Notes: generated by a model from the sequence alone, not told the origin. A DNA stretch of 64,000 nt from an uncultured Bacteroidales bacterium (GCA_947573135.1 CANPDU010000007.1:24855-88854), one strand, 5' to 3'; positions 16,780 through 27,458 are shown, counted from the stretch's first letter. Numbers and translations are program-made.

Positions 16780-18651
16780 TTAGTAACCGTCGTTCTGTGT
16801 TATGTTCTTGGCGCGGTTGCGTTCTTCCTGAGGAATGGGGAAGAGAGCAAATCTCGGTTCCCAGCGGCGGTTGAGGTCGCGCACTTTCAGTTTCTGTTTA
16901 TAAGCATCGTAGCAGGGGATATCATTGATATTCTTTTCTTTCGATGTCTTGAAATTAGGAATATCTGTCGGCGCAAGACCAAGAGAAGTCTTTTCGACTC
17001 CGTCTTCAGTGTAGGTGTTGCCAGCCTGATACTGATACTGGATGAGAGGACATCCATAAGAAGGATATTCATTCTCGATGGCTCCCGTGCCCCAGCGGTG
17101 CATATCCATCAGGTGGAGACCTTCCATCATCAGCTCGACTTTGCGTTCGCGACGAACACGCTGGCGGAGTTTTTCCTGAGCTGTCAGACCGTCGAGACTC
17201 TCGTTTGCAACACAACCGTCAGTACCGATTTCTGGCATGTGAGAGCGGCGGCGGACGGTATTGATGGCCTCTATGACAGAACCGTCTATCTGATTGAGCT
17301 CAATCTTGGCTTCAGCATAGCCGAGAAGAACTTCAGGATAGCGCATAACCATGATGTTGCAGGTCTGAGCGCTGATGTTCTGGGAGACTTCGTGAGTATA
17401 CTTACCGTTCATAAGACCGACTCCAGCGTTGCAGAAGCTTGCCCATGATGCGGAAGCACCTGCTTTATCGATGTTGAGCGTTGGTTCGTAGACCCATTCA
17501 CCGTCAATGAGTCGACCGACCAGAGTGTAGTCGTTGTAGCAGCTGAGAACCTGACGGGTTACTGTACCGTTGTTGATTTCGGAAATGTCACCGTCCATCC
17601 AGATCATTTCAGCAAAGCGAGGATCGCGGTTAGCCGACGGGTGGGCATTGTCATAAATCGGAGATGCGTCGATGCGGAGACCGTCGCTACATTCGTATGT
17701 GTCGGCGAACATATAACTGATGTGACGTCCAGTCTGACCTTGAATACGGGATGCCTGACCGAAACCTACGGGGTGAGTCATCTGAGGTGTAGTTGTGTTG
17801 GTGTAAGGCAGTTCGTAGAATATTTCATCGGTAACGCCGAGCGCCATCTGACCGCCGAAGTTGAAGAGGTCGCCATAGTTAGATACGAGGCTATAACCGC
17901 CTTCGTCAATGACTTTTTTTGCTGCCGTAGCGGCGGCTTCGAAATATGTTTTGCCTTTGCCCCCGATGTCGAGCGAGCCACCGATGAGGCCTAGACGGTT
18001 GATTATACCATAAGCGAAACCGCGGTTGAGTCGTCCTACCATCTCACGTTTCCATGGAAGGTCTTCTGCCACGCTGTTGAGGTCGGCGATAAGAGCATCG
18101 AGTATTTGCTCGCGGGGAGTTCTGTATGCAGAGTCAAATTCAGCCTGAGACACCGGTTCCATGAAGAAAGGCACATCGCCGTACAGAGATACAAGGATGT
18201 GATAGAAGTAAGCACGCAGAGCGTGGACTTCAGCAAGGTATTGGCGTCCTTTTGCCGAGAAGTTGGCTGCGTAAGGTTCTGCGCCTGCGATAACAGCATT
18301 GGCGCGTGCGATAGCGGTATAGCAGTTGCTCCAGAATTTCTGGACCGTTGCGTTGTCGGGATTGAGTGTGCCGCCGGCACCGATTGTGGTGTTTTCGCTG
18401 CGTTCGAGCAGCATCGGGGTGAGATGGTCGAGGATAACAACGGTCGGAACATTGTAGAAACCGTTGACATTGCTCATATACATCTGGTTGTATACACCCA
18501 TCAAGCCGTCGTAAACAGCTTGGTCAGAGGAGAAGAAGCCTGAGCTGTCGTAATCACTGTTTGTGTCGACACGGTCGAGGAAGTCGGCGCATGAGGCTGT
18601 CATCAGACCGAGCGCGGCTACGGCTGCTAAATATAATTTATTCTTTTTCAT
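16780..18651 (-). CDS. RagB/SusD family outer-membrane lipoprotein
   Basis: Lipobox TASC, IARANAVI, LRAYFY, MRYPEVLLGYAEA, ERKVELMMEG, final PIPQEE...QNDGY. Confidence 0.95.
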   Translation of the reverse strand: MKKNKLYLAAVAALGLMTASCADFLDRVDTNSDYDSSGFFSSDQAVYDGLMGVYNQMYMSNVNGFYNVPTVVILDHLTPMLLERSENTTIGAGGTLNPDNATVQKFWSNCYTAIARANAVIAGAEPYAANFSAKGRQYLAEVHALRAYFYHILVSLYGDVPFFMEPVSQAEFDSAYRTPREQILDALIADLNSVAEDLPWKREMVGRLNRGFAYGIINRLGLIGGSLDIGGKGKTYFEAAATAAKKVIDEGGYSLVSNYGDLFNFGGQMALGVTDEIFYELPYTNTTTPQMTHPVGFGQASRIQGQTGRHISYMFADTYECSDGLRIDASPIYDNAHPSANRDPRFAEMIWMDGDISEINNGTVTRQVLSCYNDYTLVGRLIDGEWVYEPTLNIDKAGASASWASFCNAGVGLMNGKYTHEVSQNISAQTCNIMVMRYPEVLLGYAEAKIELNQIDGSVIEAINTVRRRSHMPEIGTDGCVANESLDGLTAQEKLRQRVRRERKVELMMEGLHLMDMHRWGTGAIENEYPSYGCPLIQYQYQAGNTYTEDGVEKTSLGLAPTDIPNFKTSKEKNINDIPCYDAYKQKLKVRDLNRRWEPRFALFPIPQEERNRAKNITQNDGY

Positions 18652-18664
18652 GATTGTTGCTTGT

Positions 18665-21600
18665 TTAGAATCTTAAGTCGATACCGAATGTGTAAATTCT
18701 CATAAGAGGATAGTATGAACCTGCGTTTGCTTCCGGGTCATAGCCGGGATATGCGTTCTGGATGGTGAATAGATTCTGACCGCTCACGTAAAAACGCAGG
18801 TTGGAGATACCGATTTTGTTGACGATATTCTTGGGCATTGTGTAGCCGACAACAAGGTTCTTCAGACGCATATAGGCACCGCTCTTGATCCAGAATGACG
18901 AGCAGATGTTGTTGGGGTTGGTACCGCTGACTTGTTCCATAAGGAGCAGAGGATATTTGGCGTTGCGGTTGTCTTCGGTCCATGTGTCAAACTGGCTTTC
19001 CATGATTGTGCGTCCAACCATAAGAGGACGTACGTTGTAGCCGCTGGCATAGATGTCGCGTTTGCCTACGCCTTGGAAGAAGGCGGTGATGTCGAAGTTG
19101 TTCCATTGTGCGCTCAGGTTGAGAGAGAAGAGATAGCGCTGCTGCGGGTCACCGATAAAGGTCTTGTCGTAGTCGTCGATTACGTCGTCGGGTTTGCCGT
19201 CGGGTCCACTGATATCTTTATAGCGGATATAGCCGGGTTTGACGTTCTTCTTGTCTCCGCCATAGACGGGATAATTGTCGATTTCTTCCTGGCTCTGGAA
19301 ATATCCGTCGGCTACAAAACCGTACCAGGAGTAGATCGGATGACCGACCTGAGTAGAGTTGTCAGCGTTGATGTAAGGAGCGTGACCGTAGAGGTCGGTG
19401 ATCTCGTTCTTAACATCAGACAGGATTGCGGTGGCACTGAAGTTAACGTTGCCGAAGCTGTCGTGATAGGTGACGGAGAGATCCCAGCCGTTGTTGCGCA
19501 TATCACCCGCATTGGTCCATGGCGACCTCAAACCTACATAGAATGGAGCCGGGAATTTCTGAAGCATAGACTTGATGTTGCGTACATAGTAGTCGAATGT
19601 CACATCAATCTTGTTGTTAAACGTTGTGAGATCGAGACCGACATTGATCTGGTGTGATTTTTCCCATGATATTTCAGCATTGGAAAGGGTAGAAGCGTAG
19701 ACGCCGGTTGTGTAACCCTTGCCGGGCCAGTAGTTGGCTCCCTGGCTTAGAGTGGAAGCGTAGGGATAGTTGCCGCCGATGTTCTGGTTGCCGAGTGTAC
19801 CGTATGATGCGCGGATTTTCAGGTTGCTGACATAGTCGCGGGCCTGTTCGAAGAAATTTTCCTGAGATATACGCCATGCAGCAGAAACAGACGGGAAGAA
19901 GCCCCAGCGGTTTTCTTTTGTGAAGCGTGACGAACCGTCATAACGACCGGTCAGCTCAAGCATATATTTGCTGTCGTAGATATAGTTGAGTCGGGCGATG
20001 TAAGAAACCATAGCAAGTTCGTTGCCTGCGCCGTAAACAGATGGTGTCGAGGTTGAGTTAGAGAGGTTGTCATATCCGTCGTAAGGGAAACCAGAACGTG
20101 AAGCCCCGAAATTTTTGTATTTTGTTTCTTCGGTCTGGAAACCGGCGAATACCTTGAGATAATGTTTTTCGGCAAAAGTCTTTTCGTATGACGCCTGAAT
20201 GTTGAACTGGTTGACAACCGAGCGTTCCCATGAATCACTGCGGTAACGGCCTTCAGACGGATAACTCATCACGAACTGGCCGTCGCGGTATGTGTCGTAT
20301 GTCTCGCGGAAACTTTCGCCCTTGTAGAGCCACTGGCTGGTGGCATAACTAGCGAGGATTTCGAGACCGTCAATGGGATTGGCGACGATTGTGCCTTTGA
20401 CACGGGTCTCGTTGCCGTCGGTCTTCGATGTGCCGCCGACTTTTGACATTGCGAGCGGGTTGATACCCTGCTGTGCTTCGTTCCATGTGCCGTCGGCGTT
20501 GATTGCGCCGAAGACGGGCGAGAATGTCAAAGCGTAGCCTATGATTCCGTTTGCACCGTTATAAGGAGAGGTCGAGCTGTTACGGCGAACCGTTAAGTCG
20601 ACGCTTGCACGCAGCCAGTCAGTAATGTTGATATCGGTGTTGGAGCGCAGAGCCAGACGTCTGTAGTCATTGTTGTCGATGATACCGTCTTCGTAGCTGT
20701 ATGATGCGTTAAGGTATTCGCGGATTGTTTTGCTGCCTCCTGAAACCGAAATCGTATGGTTGGTTGTGAATGTATTGTCTTTCAGAACGAGGTCTCGCCA
20801 GTTTGTGTCGAAGCGGTGAATGTTGTCGACTCCGAGATTACGATAATCTTCAAGCATTTCCTCGTATATGGGGTTGTTGCCGGCATTTCTCTGAGCCTCG
20901 TCCATCTTTTCCATGTATTCGATTGCATTTGCGGGGCGTGGCAGTTCGGTCGGGGTGCGGAAGCCTACCCAACCGTTGTAAGTTACGGTTGCCTTGGTTT
21001 CACCGCCGCGTTTTGTCGTGACGAGGATGACACCGTTAGACGCTTTCGAACCATAGATTGATGCTGAAGCAGCGTCTTTCAGTATTGAAATTGATTCGAT
21101 CGAGTTTACGTCGAGGGCGTTCATGTCGCCTTCGATACCGTCTATAAGGATGAGAGGACTTGTATTTGAGTTTATTGATCCTACACCACGGATCTGAATG
21201 CCGGCACCTGCGCCCGGGGCACCGGAAGTCTGGGTTACGTTAACACCCGATACGAGGCCCTGAAGGGCTGTCGACGCAGTCTGCACGCTGCGTTGTGCGA
21301 GTTCCTTGCTTGAAACTTGTTGTACGGCACCGGTGAGGTTTACTTTTTTCTGTGTGCCGTAACCGACTACAATAACTTCATTGAGATTTTCTGCCGAAGG
21401 TTCGAGTACTATTTTACCCCCCCCTCGTTGACTAATTTGCTTATTCTCACCGTATTAACGGCGTAGCCGACATATGAGACCTCAATTTCTTGATTTGGCT
21501 TGGCCTTAGAAATTACAAAGTTACCGTCGATGTCGGTCGGCACACTGATGTCAGTGCCTTTCACCCTTACCGACGCTCCAATGACGGGTTCGTCATTTTC

Positions 21601-21765
21601 GTCAACAACTGTACCGGTTACTCTTGTGAAACCTGATTCACTTTTCACTTGTTGAGCTTCACTGGGAGAAGGTAACGCATAAGCGTTCCACGCGCCCGGT
21701 CCAAGCATCAACCCCATAGCCAAGCATATCTTAGGCAATGAGTTAGATAAAACAGTTTTTTTCAT
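18665..21765 (-). pseudogene. SusC/RagA TonB-dependent transporter, frameshifted at a G8 tract (21417-21424); possibly phase-variable or an assembly error
   Basis: ORF 21409-21765 (signal peptide and carboxypeptidase-like domain) ends ...NEGG-VK*. The other frame continues GKIVLEPSAENLNEVIVVGYGTQKKVNLTGAV into ORF 18665-21286 (plug ILKDAASASIYGSKASNGVILVTTK; C-terminal GIDLRF). Confidence 0.85.
21417..21424 (-). repeat. Poly-G8 homopolymer at the susC frameshift
   Basis: + strand ATTTTA-CCCCCCCC-TCG; G9 or G6 restores the frame, G7 gives TAA. Confidence 0.95.
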
Positions 21766-21927
21766 TAGATTTGTTAGTTATTTAATTATTAGGCTAATAG
21801 CCTGTTTTAGGTTTCCAATGATTTAAGGAACGTACCGCTAAATTACTCTTTTTTTAGATATGTCGACATATTTTTGAGAAAATTTTTTTAAAAATCTATA
21901 TGATCATCGTGCTATATAATAAATGAA

Positions 21928-21965
21928 AACGCCCATTGACCTGACTTGCAGGGCCAATGGGCGTT
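21928..21965 (-). terminator. Intrinsic terminator after the alpha-2-macroglobulin gene
   Basis: AACGCCCATTG...CAATGGGCGTT inverted repeat. Confidence 0.7.
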
Positions 21966-21983
21966 CATAAATATAATTGGGTT

Positions 21984-24900
21984 CTATTCGCAAAAAAGAC
22001 GGCTGCCGGCTGAGTGGGCGGTTATCGACGGAGCTAGCTGGCTTTGGACAGTCGCAATGCCGGTTGTGAATGTCCCGGCGACTGAAGCGGTCATGTCAAT
22101 CGTTATCTGATATGTTCCTTTATTGAGATAATCGATAAACAGGCGAGTCTCTGAGTCGCGGTTCTCACGGTAGAAACCTGCACCGGCACTCCATACCCAT
22201 CCGGGAAGCTGATCGACGGGTTCGAACGAAGCCGGACGCTCGTCGATGACTGTGACATACTCAAGATCGCGTTTTGCTTTTATGGTCAACAACACACGTA
22301 TCTGTTCGCCGAGACGCACTTCGTCGACATACTGCCAGCGTCCGTCGCGCAAAGCGGTGATGCGTTTTTCTATTGACAGATCGCTGCAGGAAGCGGCTTT
22401 GATCTCGGTCGACTGTCGGTTGAAACGTGAGATGACCGACCCGTAGGACGGAACTTCGCTGTTTCCTCGGACTATGTCAAGCTTTTTGCCGGCCGCATTT
22501 GCAGGGAGCGTCATCACGATGTGGCCTGTAGCCTGCTCGGCTCCTTCGATGGTCAGCTGACGTCCGCCGATCGAGACCGCTGTCTTGCTTTCGGTAGCGT
22601 CAAGCCAATTGGATCCGCATGATACGAATGCAGCGATCAGACGCGTTGGATCGACGCTGCCGAGACTTTCTGTGGTCTGCTGCCGGACGACGAGCCACTG
22701 CCGCATACCGTCGATGATCTTCGACTCGGGCATGAGGCGTGCGAACGCATACAGCAGATCTGCATAGTCATTTATATTGCCGGAAGAGGGGAAAGATGTG
22801 CCTTTATCAGGTGAATCTACAGCAAATTCGCTAAGCGAAGTCAGTATCTGACGTGCAACGGCCGGATACCCCTTGGCGGCGAGTATCAGAGCTTCGACAG
22901 ATTTGTGCCACGTGCTACTCTTCTTCCATGTGCCGATAATATCCTGAACGGTGGCGTTGACGATCTGAGTCCCGCGCAGACCGATTTTTACATCAGGGAA
23001 GAGTGTAGTGATGAACGTGAACGAACCTTCAATTTTAACATCTTTGGGTATCTCAGCTTCGCAGTAGGCTATTGCCCGTGTGATCATATTCTTCAGATCT
23101 TTGTCGTCAGGCATATAACCGATGGCGTTGAGGCGGCCGAGGTTCTGGAGCACAATGTTCGTGGCCCAGAATGAAGATTTGTCTCCCCACTCACCCCAGC
23201 TCCATCCGCCGTCGGCGCGCTGAAGTTTTTTCAGAGTCTCGATCGACGAGCTGATGGCTTTAGATGTGGCGTCCTTGTCGAAGAGCAATGAGAGCCGGGC
23301 CATGCGTTCGGTATCGGATGCGGCGGCTTGAACCCACGGCGTCGAGTTGAGAACGGCAGCTTTGAGTTCGTTGTTTTTCGACAGACGAGATGTCAGGGCG
23401 CCGGTTTCGGGATTTTCAGCCCATTCGTCGAGAACTTTTGCAAGAGCCGGATAAGTTTTGATCAGACCCGATGCTGTCGCGGCCGAGAACAGACGGTATG
23501 CTGCGCCGGTCGATGTCGACGGATTGGATGCCGCAAGTCCGGGCAATTCCTTGATGATATTCCAGGCGGGATTGGCCGTGTAGTCGAGAGTCGACTGCAT
23601 GTCATTACCTTTAGGTATTTTTACGCTGACTGATTCTTCGCCGGGATTGAGATAGAAGTTTTCACTTTCAATCACGTCGGAAGTTGACGGAACGATGGGA
23701 ATGAAGTCCTGTTCACCGTCGGTGAAGCGTCCGAGAGTCGAGCGTACACGATAACCTATTGCTGCGACATCGCCGGGGGCCGTGACCGATGCGGCGACTA
23801 TAGCCGAGGCTGACGCTGCAATGGTGTCGGATGAAGTGAATGTAGAGCGTACTTCTCCCGATGCAATATCAAAGATCTCGACTGTGCTTGTCACGACGGC
23901 GGCAGAGTCGCTGTTGTTATAGACTGTGGCAAGTACACGGGCCTCGTCGCCTACGCGGAGGAAGCGCGGCAGATTGGGCTGAACCATCACAGGCTTCGAC
24001 GCGATGAATTCGCGAACCATCTTCGTCGAGCGAAGATCGCCGGTCCATGCAAATGCATTGAACGACCATGTCGTATTGGCGTCTGGCACGGTGAAAGTCA
24101 GCAACGCCTCGCCATTCTTATCAAAGACGAGATCCGGCATCCAGAACGCCTGCAGCACTTCCCCGTCTCGGTATTCGAAATTCTCGGTTGTAATGTCGGC
24201 TGTGTCCATGTCAGAAGCTGATGTGTCTTCTTCCGGGTCCACTCCGGCTGCTTTAGATTCAGTGACATCGATGCTTCCTATCATCGACGCATTCTCCATA
24301 TACGCCTCATCTTCAGTGACAAGAATAGCAGACACCGAACCATTGGCTCTGGCTCTTGAGAGTGCTTTGAATTTATACTGTCGCAGATCCGATAAGTTAA
24401 TTGATGGGTTAAAACGAGGTGCGGACAAGAACACTTCTCGTAATCCTTTTATATCGGCACTGAATGTAATGAAATTCATTTGGGAATTTGTAATAGCAGA
24501 TAGTCTCTGATATGTCTTTTCCCGTGGAATAATAAAATCAGAAGGCAGATCATACGGTAGTAAAGCATTGAGAGCAGAGTTAAACATTGTCGCAATCATA
24601 GCGCCGGTCTGAGGACGGTTGGATTCGTCGACAAATTTTACTGTCCAGTTTTCTTTTGACCCCACAGTCAGACGGTCGCGCATTGACGAACATTCGAGAC
24701 TGACTTTGTTTTTGTGATCGATGTTAACCCGAAGCTGTTTTGATGTTTGAACGCCATTGCGGACAGTGAACAGATATACAGAGCCGTCCTCACGGTTGCC
24801 CGGTAAACGGAAGTCAATAGTGTGGAAACCGCGGTTTAAGCAATTGATATTTGTGGAAATAAGCCTATTGCGAGATGCAAATGCTTGATATACATATGTC

Positions 24901-27458
24901 GAATCATTGGCGACACCGAATTGCAGACTGAATTTTCCGTCAGGAGTAGCACTTATTTTATCATTAGTAATGAAAATTGCGTCATCAGTCGGGACTAAAT
25001 TTTTCTTCAGACTGTAGGTTGTGATATATGCAGCTTCTTTAACAGAGTCGGCAAGAGTTGAATCAACCGGAGCGACTGACACACACCATTTGCCGGCTGG
25101 AACATTTGCCAAATTGATTGATGAAAATTTATCTGTCGTGCAATTCCCTGATACAACCGCTTTGTCTTTATTGTGGTTCCCATCAGCAGGTGTAAGCCAC
25201 CAATGTATATCAATTGACACTTCTTTGCCCGAAGCATTGTATGCGGCAAAAGGATATTCAACATTTTGGTCTACATTAATGGGTTTATCGATGTCAGTAA
25301 AATCAATAGAATATGGCTTACCTAACGAGAACGAAACCGAAGACTTGCGCACTTCTCCGTCTGCCGAAGCTACTGAGATTTTAGCAATAAAACATTTGGT
25401 TTTAGATGATGCAGTTATAGAATCGCTGACGATGAAGTTAAATTCCCCTTTTGAATCGGTTGTGGCTGACAGATGTCCGATAACGCGGTCGGGAGAAAAC
25501 CACCGCCACCATGATGCTTCCCAGATCTCTGCTTCAACTTTGGCCCCGGCTACAGGCATTCCGGAGTAAGTTACGGCCTCAGAGATGAGTGTTACGTCTC
25601 CGGCCGCTGGTATATCACGTTTAACCTCAATTTCTTTGATCTTGAAAGTCGGCAATTTAAAATCTGAAACTTCGACAAATCTGTTGTTAAGGTATCTGCC
25701 ATCTGCTGTCGTGACTTCAATGCGGTAATAGCCTGTAAGTCCCTCCGTGGGTGTTATAAAACAACCGTTTACACGTCCGTTCGAATTTGTTTTTGCTGTT
25801 AAACTGTCAACCAGCTGACTATTGGTGTCGTAAAATTTGATATGTAAATTCTCATTCGGTTGTGGACGAGGCTCGGCATTTGCAAAATATACTATTGCGG
25901 CCCATCGCACAGAGTCTCCAGGATGATAGATCATTCTATCGGACATGATTTTCGCGTTGTAGTATGAATATGACTCGCTTGGCAAAGTTCTTATGTGGTT
26001 ATTGAAGAAGTTGAAAGTCTGATTGTTGCAGGTGATATCAAAAGATGTCTTCATCCAGGTAAACTTTCCAAGCAAACTCTCTGGTGTATCTGGAATAAAG
26101 GAAACAATACCGTTTTTATCGGTAGTCCCGATTGTTTGTTTAATCGTTTCTACATTTCTGGTTATAGATGCGCCCTTAATTGGTGCCCCGCTTTCATAAT
26201 CCACAACTGTAATCAAGTTATCGGCTGTCTGCTCGACAAGAGTAGGGATAAACGACATACATCTGATATACTGGGCGTAATATTTTGAGAATTTTCCGTT
26301 TACAACTGGTACTATTACATAATATCCTGATTTACCGATAGTAGCGCTTATAATTGTGTCAGCAGAGGCAGTCTGAGGATCTGTAATAAAGGATACAGAC
26401 TGTATTTCAGTCGCAGATGATGTATTGAAATTAGATTTTTCAAACGTCTTGGCGTTAATCTGATATATTTTGTATCCGGCGTTTTTAGTATATGAATAAT
26501 TGACTGTTATATCAAATTTTACTCCAGGAGCAATTATAGATTTGGATTTTACACCAACTTCAGCAAGAGTGAGTCGTCCGAGTATATTTTTAAGTGTGTT
26601 AATGTCCCAATAGTTTGGAAAGCGGTCAATAAAGCTTTTTAGTGCTGGAATTGCCCATTCCGGGGCATTATTTTTATAGTATGCGTCCAGGCAGTTGGCA
26701 AGTAGATAACCTGCTGCTTCTTTGTCACTGTTTTTGAGATAGTATTTGCCTCTCTCTTGGATAACATTTTCTGAAGTCAGAGTTAATTTTTTATCAAACC
26801 AGTAAAATTCTGCATCTGAGTCAGGCCTGCTTTGTGACATCATGGTCTCCACTATTGGTAACAGAAATTGTTTGCGTCCATCCATCGCAGGCAGATTATA
26901 TGCTCGTGATGCAATAAATGATAGAACTGTCGGGAAGAATCGAAGAGACAAACGGTCGGCTTTAATTATCGAAGCATATTCTGTTAGGTCTGCTTTGGGT
27001 GAGTTTAAGGCCAAGTTAAAAGCATTGGCTAATTCTGCGTGAATCTGAGTGCAGAACTGGCGGCCGTTCCATTCGGTGATGTCGGCCGGAAGCGGTTCGT
27101 CGGGCGTTTCCGTCCGGTCATATTTCCAGCTGTTAGCACTATAAATTGAATTTATAAGTTCGGCTTTGACCGTCATCATCAGTGCTTTGTCCGCACCGTC
27201 GGGCATAGCGTCAATGGCGCGGTCTACGCGCGGCAGAACACTCGGAACGCTGTCCGTATCAATTGCAGCTGTCGCTCCGGTGATCTGCAAAATACTGCCG
27301 ATCAGCTTCTGACCGTCACGTGACGGATTTTTCATCGCCTGGCCATATTCCTTTATTGCATTTGTGAGCGACGTTTTGGGATAGGCAAAATCAGGTTCGG
27401 CGGCCATTATGTTGACCGACGCGAGAATAGCAATCAGCAGAACTGCGATTTGTTTCAT
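21984..27458 (-). CDS. Bacterial alpha-2-macroglobulin family protein (1824 aa, no CxEQ)
   Basis: Signal peptide; DRMIYHPGD (MG2), FWMPDL...TVPDANTTW, VQPNLPRFLRVGD, QRADGGWSW, YVTVIDERPASFEP. Confidence 0.92.
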   Translation of the reverse strand: MKQIAVLLIAILASVNIMAAEPDFAYPKTSLTNAIKEYGQAMKNPSRDGQKLIGSILQITGATAAIDTDSVPSVLPRVDRAIDAMPDGADKALMMTVKAELINSIYSANSWKYDRTETPDEPLPADITEWNGRQFCTQIHAELANAFNLALNSPKADLTEYASIIKADRLSLRFFPTVLSFIASRAYNLPAMDGRKQFLLPIVETMMSQSRPDSDAEFYWFDKKLTLTSENVIQERGKYYLKNSDKEAAGYLLANCLDAYYKNNAPEWAIPALKSFIDRFPNYWDINTLKNILGRLTLAEVGVKSKSIIAPGVKFDITVNYSYTKNAGYKIYQINAKTFEKSNFNTSSATEIQSVSFITDPQTASADTIISATIGKSGYYVIVPVVNGKFSKYYAQYIRCMSFIPTLVEQTADNLITVVDYESGAPIKGASITRNVETIKQTIGTTDKNGIVSFIPDTPESLLGKFTWMKTSFDITCNNQTFNFFNNHIRTLPSESYSYYNAKIMSDRMIYHPGDSVRWAAIVYFANAEPRPQPNENLHIKFYDTNSQLVDSLTAKTNSNGRVNGCFITPTEGLTGYYRIEVTTADGRYLNNRFVEVSDFKLPTFKIKEIEVKRDIPAAGDVTLISEAVTYSGMPVAGAKVEAEIWEASWWRWFSPDRVIGHLSATTDSKGEFNFIVSDSITASSKTKCFIAKISVASADGEVRKSSVSFSLGKPYSIDFTDIDKPINVDQNVEYPFAAYNASGKEVSIDIHWWLTPADGNHNKDKAVVSGNCTTDKFSSINLANVPAGKWCVSVAPVDSTLADSVKEAAYITTYSLKKNLVPTDDAIFITNDKISATPDGKFSLQFGVANDSTYVYQAFASRNRLISTNINCLNRGFHTIDFRLPGNREDGSVYLFTVRNGVQTSKQLRVNIDHKNKVSLECSSMRDRLTVGSKENWTVKFVDESNRPQTGAMIATMFNSALNALLPYDLPSDFIIPREKTYQRLSAITNSQMNFITFSADIKGLREVFLSAPRFNPSINLSDLRQYKFKALSRARANGSVSAILVTEDEAYMENASMIGSIDVTESKAAGVDPEEDTSASDMDTADITTENFEYRDGEVLQAFWMPDLVFDKNGEALLTFTVPDANTTWSFNAFAWTGDLRSTKMVREFIASKPVMVQPNLPRFLRVGDEARVLATVYNNSDSAAVVTSTVEIFDIASGEVRSTFTSSDTIAASASAIVAASVTAPGDVAAIGYRVRSTLGRFTDGEQDFIPIVPSTSDVIESENFYLNPGEESVSVKIPKGNDMQSTLDYTANPAWNIIKELPGLAASNPSTSTGAAYRLFSAATASGLIKTYPALAKVLDEWAENPETGALTSRLSKNNELKAAVLNSTPWVQAAASDTERMARLSLLFDKDATSKAISSSIETLKKLQRADGGWSWGEWGDKSSFWATNIVLQNLGRLNAIGYMPDDKDLKNMITRAIAYCEAEIPKDVKIEGSFTFITTLFPDVKIGLRGTQIVNATVQDIIGTWKKSSTWHKSVEALILAAKGYPAVARQILTSLSEFAVDSPDKGTSFPSSGNINDYADLLYAFARLMPESKIIDGMRQWLVVRQQTTESLGSVDPTRLIAAFVSCGSNWLDATESKTAVSIGGRQLTIEGAEQATGHIVMTLPANAAGKKLDIVRGNSEVPSYGSVISRFNRQSTEIKAASCSDLSIEKRITALRDGRWQYVDEVRLGEQIRVLLTIKAKRDLEYVTVIDERPASFEPVDQLPGWVWSAGAGFYRENRDSETRLFIDYLNKGTYQITIDMTASVAGTFTTGIATVQSQLAPSITAHSAGSRLFCE

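Follow-up and report, generated by a model that had tools for sequence, protein, structure and literature searches.

Neisseria meningitidis carries a poly-G tract in the open reading frame (ORF) of its TonB-dependent haemoglobin receptors HmbR and HpuAB (PMC3786947, PMC3352162), and the phasomes of Campylobacter jejuni, Helicobacter and Haemophilus contain poly-G/C contingency loci (PMC6321876, PMC8355987). In Bacteroides fragilis, invertases drive SusC/SusD phase variation, as Nakayama-Imaohji 2009 is cited in a 2025 review (PMC11868660). The same review gives no repeat-mediated case of phase variation for Bacteroidales, and it agrees with an earlier reading of the present locus, made from the sequence only, that SusCD variation in this order is mostly described as DNA inversion. 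A 2010 paper on B. fragilis goes no further than to speculate that a C4/C5 run of a capsule locus may slip. Here, we explored a stretch of 64,000 nt from an uncultured Bacteroidales bacterium (GCA_947573135.1, CANPDU010000007.1:24855-88854; hereafter the window), in which a susC gene, followed by a susD-like gene, is split at a run of eight G's. We consider it likely, judging from the sequence, that this run is a slippage-driven poly-G contingency locus, that it acts as an ON/OFF switch, and that the window genome has been caught in the OFF state at G8. A switch of a known kind thus seems to occur in a taxon and a gene family where it is undescribed; our literature search did not turn up homopolymer phase variation in any Bacteroidales SusC or in Muribaculaceae, and absence from the literature searched is not proof.

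The closest analogue is HmbR/HpuAB. The common points are a poly-G tract in the ORF of a TonB-dependent receptor, ON/OFF switching by frameshift, and mixed tract lengths in nature. However, the present locus belongs to a different phylum, its product is a transporter of the SusC/RagA class that has a SusD lipoprotein as its lid, and its tract is placed in a linker with the N-terminal extension (NTE) on one side and the putative TonB box on the other. Switching rates and phenotypes have been measured in Neisseria, whereas the proposed susC switch is read here from sequence. The window genome resembles the phasomes of Campylobacter, Helicobacter and Haemophilus in its excess of G/C runs of length 8 or more at surface-protein genes, both inside and between genes, and it also has G7-G9 runs in the promoters of outer-membrane and lipoprotein genes, although these promoter runs look near-fixed at G8 within the strain. 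Campylobacter is without MutS/MutL-type mismatch repair, whereas the window genome has both proteins, as Neisseria and Haemophilus do. The B. fragilis system, so far as the review describes it, likewise concerns SusC/SusD pairs in Bacteroidales and population heterogeneity in a surface nutrient importer. There, however, a promoter lying between inverted repeats undergoes site-specific inversion, and none of these repeats was found on either side of the susC promoter: the only inverted repeat at positions 21300-22400 is a terminator-like hairpin, and the locus is not of the Bacteroides invertible-promoter type.

All coordinates are those of the whole window, and the main features are listed in Table 1. 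The susC gene is on the minus strand, so that the tract appears on the plus strand as eight C's in tattttaCCCCCCCCtcgttg. The minus-strand frame from the ATG at 21765 ends after 118 aa in AAC GAG GGG GGG GTA AAA TAG, with the stop at 21411-21409. A second minus-strand frame runs from 21454 to a stop at 18665 (929 codons) and includes KIVLEPSAENLNEVIVVGYGTQKK; its translation reads GGGKIVLEPSAENLNEVIVVGYGTQKK, followed by the plug and the barrel. This plug-and-barrel part lacks its own signal peptide, and gene callers report an 873-aa susC remnant that starts at a GTG at 21286. With one extra G, the two frames join into a 1033-aa SusC, and with G6 into a product of 1032 aa; G7, G8 and G10 are out of frame and meet a stop 0-2 codons past the run. 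Our translations bear out what the sequence-only reading had said of these frames, and both joined forms exist in public data, the exact G9 product as P0003 and a G6 form as P0139. The run, a G8 inside the susC ORF, falls in the length class of 7-8 or more G/C that is able to slip. A change of length alone opens or closes susC, because the remainder of the gene and the whole of susD are intact. As had been claimed, no other lesion was found in susC or susD when the window was translated, and the identical 623-aa susD product is present in other assemblies. Contigs L025 and L028 seemed to have a broken susD, but the breaks are scaffold N-gaps and not lesions.

The full-length SusC matches Pfam CarboxypepD_reg at residues 49-107 and Plug at 141-246, and the 118-aa fragment by itself matches CarboxypepD_reg and CarbopepD_reg_2. 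Since the tract corresponds to codons 114-117, its place is the linker between the NTE domain and the putative TonB box and plug, where the earlier reading had placed it. The motif NEVIVVGYG is presumably the TonB box, because it has a conserved position in SusC-like proteins. Over residues 48-1033, the homologues in the Protein Data Bank include SusC 8aa4 (the best match), 5t3r and RagA 6sli, and the alignment with 6zlt, a construct of BT1763 with the NTE deleted, begins at residue 131. The architecture seen in 8aa4, BT1763 (5t3r/6zlt) and RagA (6sli), namely NTE, TonB box, plug, barrel and a SusD-like partner, is thus the same by sequence, a likeness that rests on the phmmer E-value (best 7e-147); none of these proteins has been reported with a homopolymer switch. 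An NTE domain, a plug, a barrel and a SusD_RagB gene 13 nt downstream identify the pair as a SusC/RagA-type transporter with its SusD. Because susD starts only 13 nt past the susC stop, the two genes are probably in one operon, and susD probably comes under polarity in the OFF state.

To describe tract lengths in the same strain, exact products were looked up in public assemblies and the DNA of matching contigs was fetched. When the downstream frame was used to query 5.8 billion proteins, the 1033-aa P0003 was recovered, 99% identical and equal to the exact predicted G9 product. It occurs on 31 contigs, and about 8 more carry single-residue variants. Contigs with the 118-aa G8 product (P0001) number 43 (53 index blocks). 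For the exact G10 product of 117 aa there are 11 contigs, and 3 more carry variants of it; for the exact G7 product of 116 aa there are 8. P0139, a 1032-aa protein reading NEGGKIVLEP, corresponds to G6 and is on 2 contigs, one of them 103 kb long. Including single-residue variants, the tally over about 110 contigs is G6 ~2, G7 ~8, G8 ~47, G9 ~39 and G10 ~14. Ten contigs each of G9, G8 and G10 were checked at the DNA level, and the expected length was read in all of them (10/10 for P0003, 10/10 for P0001, and ten G10 contigs). Exact look-up found no product of G5, G11 or G12; the G6 and R-variant G9 sequences as we had constructed them were also absent, although the G6 variant P0139 is present. 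The comparison of conspecific assemblies that the sequence-only reading had proposed therefore gives five lengths, from G6 to G10. Among contigs of at least 10 kb, G8 accounts for 20 index blocks, G9 for 23 and G10 for 1. The robust polymorphism is G8 versus G9, as the two are nearly equal in long contigs.

We then considered whether the tract is conserved in other lineages. A DNA search of 60 relatives gave only two susC orthologues, one with the tract (G026) and one with no run (G001). The G026 orthologue, from the same genus and with 72% nucleotide identity, has G7 at the same place and in frame, KLSRGGNISLEP. Orthologues at 72-77% amino-acid identity show AGG GGG GGT or AAC GGG GGG GGT at the same codons. 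A scan of metagenome contigs (JGI) found no close susC orthologue, the best match having 36% identity. In total, a G7-G9 run stands at the same codons in five lineages, the window species and at least four others, and it is spelled with the rarest codons for Gly and Arg. Among the Gly codons of the window genome 6% are GGG, among its Arg codons 5% are AGG, and GGG-GGG encodes only 7 of 3069 Gly-Gly pairs. This rare-codon spelling indicates that the run is kept at the DNA level and not by amino-acid constraint. In a maximum-likelihood tree of 14 orthologues, Gly-Gly is found at the site in 9, in most subclades and on the earliest branch, with at least four gains or losses, which suggests that the tract is old and has been lost repeatedly. 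P0010 (L095, G8, QLVNGGGKIIL) and P0011 (L096, no tract, QLTAADGKVTL) are near-identical SusC proteins that differ in the linker, with branch lengths of 0.005-0.007; it looks as if the switch in P0011 had been replaced locally, leaving a 'locked' allele.

OFF alleles also occur outside the window species. In the species of P0013, the ON length is G7, found on more than 200 contigs and making up more than 95%; OFF contigs with an 879-aa remnant have G8 (L100, L101, L103), G9 (L102) or G6 (L104). The G026 species is ON at G7, and GCA_948483985.1 (L105) is OFF at G8. The P0136 lineage is likewise ON at G7, and its exact G8 product is on 2 contigs. Tract length at this site therefore varies in four species-level lineages and in unrelated data sets.

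With five lengths on near-identical backgrounds, stable control runs (see below) and tracts in orthologues, the slipped-strand ON/OFF variation of susC that had been put forward for this gene is supported. Slipped-strand mispairing during replication would add or remove G's in the run. G9, and rarely G6, would give the full SusC/RagA-type outer-membrane transporter (ON), and G7, G8 and G10 would give an early stop (OFF). From the ON length, a gain of one G would produce GGG TAA, an immediate stop, and a loss of one would produce GTA AAA TAG. OFF cells would make only a secreted product of 116-118 aa, consisting of signal peptide and NTE domain, while any barrel part would lack export, and SusD would be lowered through polarity. 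It may be expected that the change is reversible within a lineage and that OFF cells lose the SusC and SusD proteins. Any benefit may lie in escape from attack on a surface receptor by phages, antibodies or colicin-like toxins, or in the saving of cost when substrate is lacking.

Several points weigh against this picture of a switch. MutS and MutL are present, so rates of the extreme Campylobacter kind are not to be taken for granted. A single study ('BATT21-1_SAMEA...') supplied almost all of the conspecific contigs, which are hence not independent populations, although G8 is also seen in SRR15730540, ERR4372274 and SRR29323607. The G10 contigs are mostly short and probably from low-coverage assemblies, and the G7 contigs, judged by their longest contig, are probably mostly short too; some of these may be consensus errors. 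About 37% of contigs have an in-frame allele, near the one third expected of neutral length drift, so there is no signal that ON is favoured in this host population. The four-gamete pattern of SNPs and tract lengths could partly be due to recombination. Sample SAMEA7076252 shows one extra G at two runs, susC being G10 (L115) and the C51 control run G9 (L044), which may be either a sample-specific technical bias or a coincidence. Finally, at a non-coding G8 run of the window's own genome, G000 (G000:C1:57080-57087), three other assemblies of this strain have G9.

The main rival is that the tract does slip, as a mutational hotspot, but has evolved no role in switching, susC being unneeded in this host population, with lengths that drift on the way to decay. 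We regard this as unlikely, though it deserves attention. The in-frame share fits it (G6 and G9 on ~41 of ~110 contigs), and so does the nature of the pair, an orphan susCD with no CAZyme genes alongside. However, a gene that has long been OFF should gather other damage, and no contig has a second lesion. The rare-codon tract is also kept at the same site in several species with intact genes, and the gene is ON in the great majority of P0013-species contigs. This long-term retention of both tract and intact gene across species argues against mere drift.

It may also be supposed that two or more stable clones with fixed tract lengths circulate together, that each assembly shows the dominant clone, and that switching is not frequent. 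This explanation is improbable, in spite of the very low diversity of contigs drawn largely from a single study. Across the fetched contigs, the flanks of the tract (3.3 kb on the upstream side and 0.6-5 kb on the downstream side) show no difference or 1-3 SNPs, and two SNPs are common, at 19526 (Arg/Ser) and 18542. Haplotype T-C carries G8, G9 and G10, T-T carries G8 and G9, and G-C carries G8. The presence of G8, G9 and G10 on one haplotype means at least three tract changes in the time in which two common SNPs arose over about 8.5 kb, and the five lengths require at least four tract mutations, so that length diversity exceeds the background diversity. Recombination could yield mixed SNP and tract combinations among such clones; it could explain part of the pattern, but not five alleles. 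The recurrence of the pattern in three other species also speaks against fixed clones. At SNP 19526, 1891 nt downstream of the tract, the European Nucleotide Archive scaffold of SAMEA7076318 (L035, 103,038 bp) has T where the window has G, giving Ser instead of Arg in YVGL[R/S]SPW; the window genome is thus not letter-identical to that scaffold.

The sequence-only reading had held a homopolymer indel from sequencing or assembly, with G9 as the true sequence everywhere, to be an equally serious explanation. We now find it very improbable. Homopolymers are error-prone, G10 is mostly confined to short contigs, and the double gain in SAMEA7076252 and the G8/G9 disagreement at C1:57080 are what such errors would look like. 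However, G8 is found in 43-53 assemblies, among them 20 contigs of at least 10 kb, and in independent studies (SRR15730540, SRR29323607), and it is about as frequent as G9 in long contigs of many samples. G8 runs of the promoter type in the same genome served as controls, and they were read as G8 in 13 of 14 comparisons with other assemblies. Where a sample has G8 at susC, its controls are likewise G8, and in two samples with susC G9 (SAMEA7076117 and SAMEA7076250) the C27 control is also G8. Because the controls stay at G8 even where susC is G9, a generic mis-assembly of G8 runs is no explanation for the susC spectrum. That reading had allowed for two other outcomes, G9 in all accurate data or a simple pseudogene fixed at G8 with orthologues lacking the run; instead, long contigs are divided between G8 and G9, orthologues carry the run, and the strain ranges from G6 to G10. 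The C1:57080 run is near a YafQ/DinJ-like toxin-antitoxin pair and is flanked by repeated hairpin-like sequences, gcctcggagaggcgg; a search of Rfam found no RNA family around the non-promoter G8 runs, this one included.

That full-length SusC is made from G8 by recoding, through transcriptional slippage or ribosomal frameshifting, is hardly credible: RNA polymerase can slip on long homopolymers, but the in-frame allele in many assemblies and in sister species indicates standard reading, and no stimulatory structure or shift-prone heptamer was noticed, though none was looked for.

The neighbourhood of susC is also shared. The order alpha-2-macroglobulin (A2M, 1824-1894 aa), susC, susD is common to the window species (16780-27458) and the P0013 species (L100-L104). 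The A2M-susCD block is flanked upstream by fumarate hydratase and downstream, on the opposite strand, by 2-hydroxyacid dehydrogenase. As a terminator-like hairpin lies past the A2M gene, susC and susD are predicted to have their own promoter in the 218-nt spacer. No glycoside hydrolases or other CAZyme genes adjoin the susCD pair, so the substrate need not be a glycan.

Table 1. Positions of the susC-susD features in the window, with G runs elsewhere in the genome (positions led by C) and the tract site in other lineages.
Feature	Position	Strand	Description
Poly-G tract, G8 (predicted OFF length)	21417..21424	-	codons 114-117; GAG GGG GGG GGT in the G9 form
susC 5' fragment P0001, 118 aa	21409..21765	-	signal peptide and carboxypeptidase-regulatory-like NTE; TAG two codons past the tract
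susC remainder P0002, 929 codons stop to stop	18665..21454	-	linker, putative TonB box, plug, beta-barrel
Putative TonB box NEVIVVGYG	21356..21382	-	12 codons 3' of the tract, from translation
susD-like gene, 623 aa, intact	16780..18651	-	SusD_RagB and SusD-like_3 domains; start 13 nt past the susC stop
Terminator-like hairpin	21928..21965	-	14-nt arms, then TTTTCATTT; past the upstream alpha-2-macroglobulin gene
Alpha-2-macroglobulin gene, 1824 aa	21984..27458	-	upstream neighbour; MG2, A2M, bMG10 domains
Control G8 run	C51:4126		5' of OMP_b-brl_3 gene; G8 in 7/8 and G9 in 1/8 other assemblies
Control G8 run	C27:36131		5' of PEGA/barrel gene; G8 in 4/4 other assemblies
Control G8 run	C1:16900		5' of DUF4595 lipoprotein gene; G8 in 2/2 other assemblies
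G7-G9-TAATTT sites	C1:16900, C27:36131, C43:6093, C50:35, C3:128163	-	promoter-like module
G7-G9-TAATTT sites	C6:40943, C36:1644, C51:4126	+	promoter-like module
Looser module sites	C7:3693, C16:8852, C27:11261
Tract site, P0136 lineage			AAT AGG GGG GGT CAG
Tract site, P0010			AAC GGG GGG GGT AAG
Tract site, P0013			AAT AGG GGG GGT AAA

The window genome, that of a gut Muribaculaceae species, has 2.85 Mb in 56 contigs, with 49% GC and 99.9% completeness, and its relatives are Muribaculaceae metagenome-assembled genomes (MAGs), genomes of the mouse-gut catalogue among them. The reading frames of its MutS and MutL genes are open. We counted its G/C runs and found that they drop about 6- to 8-fold per extra base up to length 7 (884, 118, 15), followed by 10 runs of length 8, one G9 and one G11. 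G8 runs are thus more frequent than expected by chance, and the excess is genome-wide. The G11 run, at G000:C15:90-100, is 90 nt from the contig start in overlapping open frames on both strands, and may be the site of an assembly break. A suspected second frameshift, at a G7 at G000:C1:108553, was rejected; that run encodes an in-frame Pro-Pro of a lipoprotein gene overlapping the next gene.

Outside the window, a promoter-like module recurs in this genome, in which G7-G9 is followed directly by TAATTT. TAA stands directly 3' of 8 of the 10 G8 runs, but of only about 2-3% of the shorter ones. Of 9 TAATTT sites, 6 are followed 11-24 nt (mostly 20) downstream by a Bacteroidetes -7 box with a perfect match to TAnnTTTG, a spacing that places the G run at about -33. 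The genes 3' of the module are mostly for outer-membrane proteins or lipoproteins (DUF4595, DUF3575, OMP_b-brl_3, a PEGA/barrel protein and a 216-aa lipoprotein). Across 41 genomes of the genus, the module has G6 in 5 cases, G7 in 16, G8 in 18, and G9 or longer in 14, compared with 3 for the reversed-pattern control. Within the strain its runs are near-fixed at G8 (13/14).

Textbook accounts explain phase variation in gut Bacteroidales by invertible promoters and shufflons. We tentatively suggest, with somewhat less than even confidence, that this Muribaculaceae genus has a homopolymer 'phasome' as a second layer beside DNA inversion. It would comprise intragenic poly-G switches, of which the susC tract would be an ancient, rare-codon and repeatedly lost example, and a promoter module, G8-TAATTT-N12-14-TAnnTTTG, with its run at -33. 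An OFF susC might also free a periplasmic NTE domain, perhaps with a role of its own. The susC tract offers a concrete and testable locus, as long contigs of one clonal strain, taken from many samples, have G8 and G9 about equally often. In MAGs, genes of this sort are labelled pseudogenes, which would lead to an undercount of functional polysaccharide utilization loci, and metagenomes could directly yield tract length as an indicator of selection that acts on a surface receptor in individual hosts. If the susC switch is real, a mechanism classic for Neisseria, Haemophilus and Campylobacter would be added to an abundant family of commensals, and the switch would act on the proteins that decide nutrient import and the docking of phages, antibodies and toxins.

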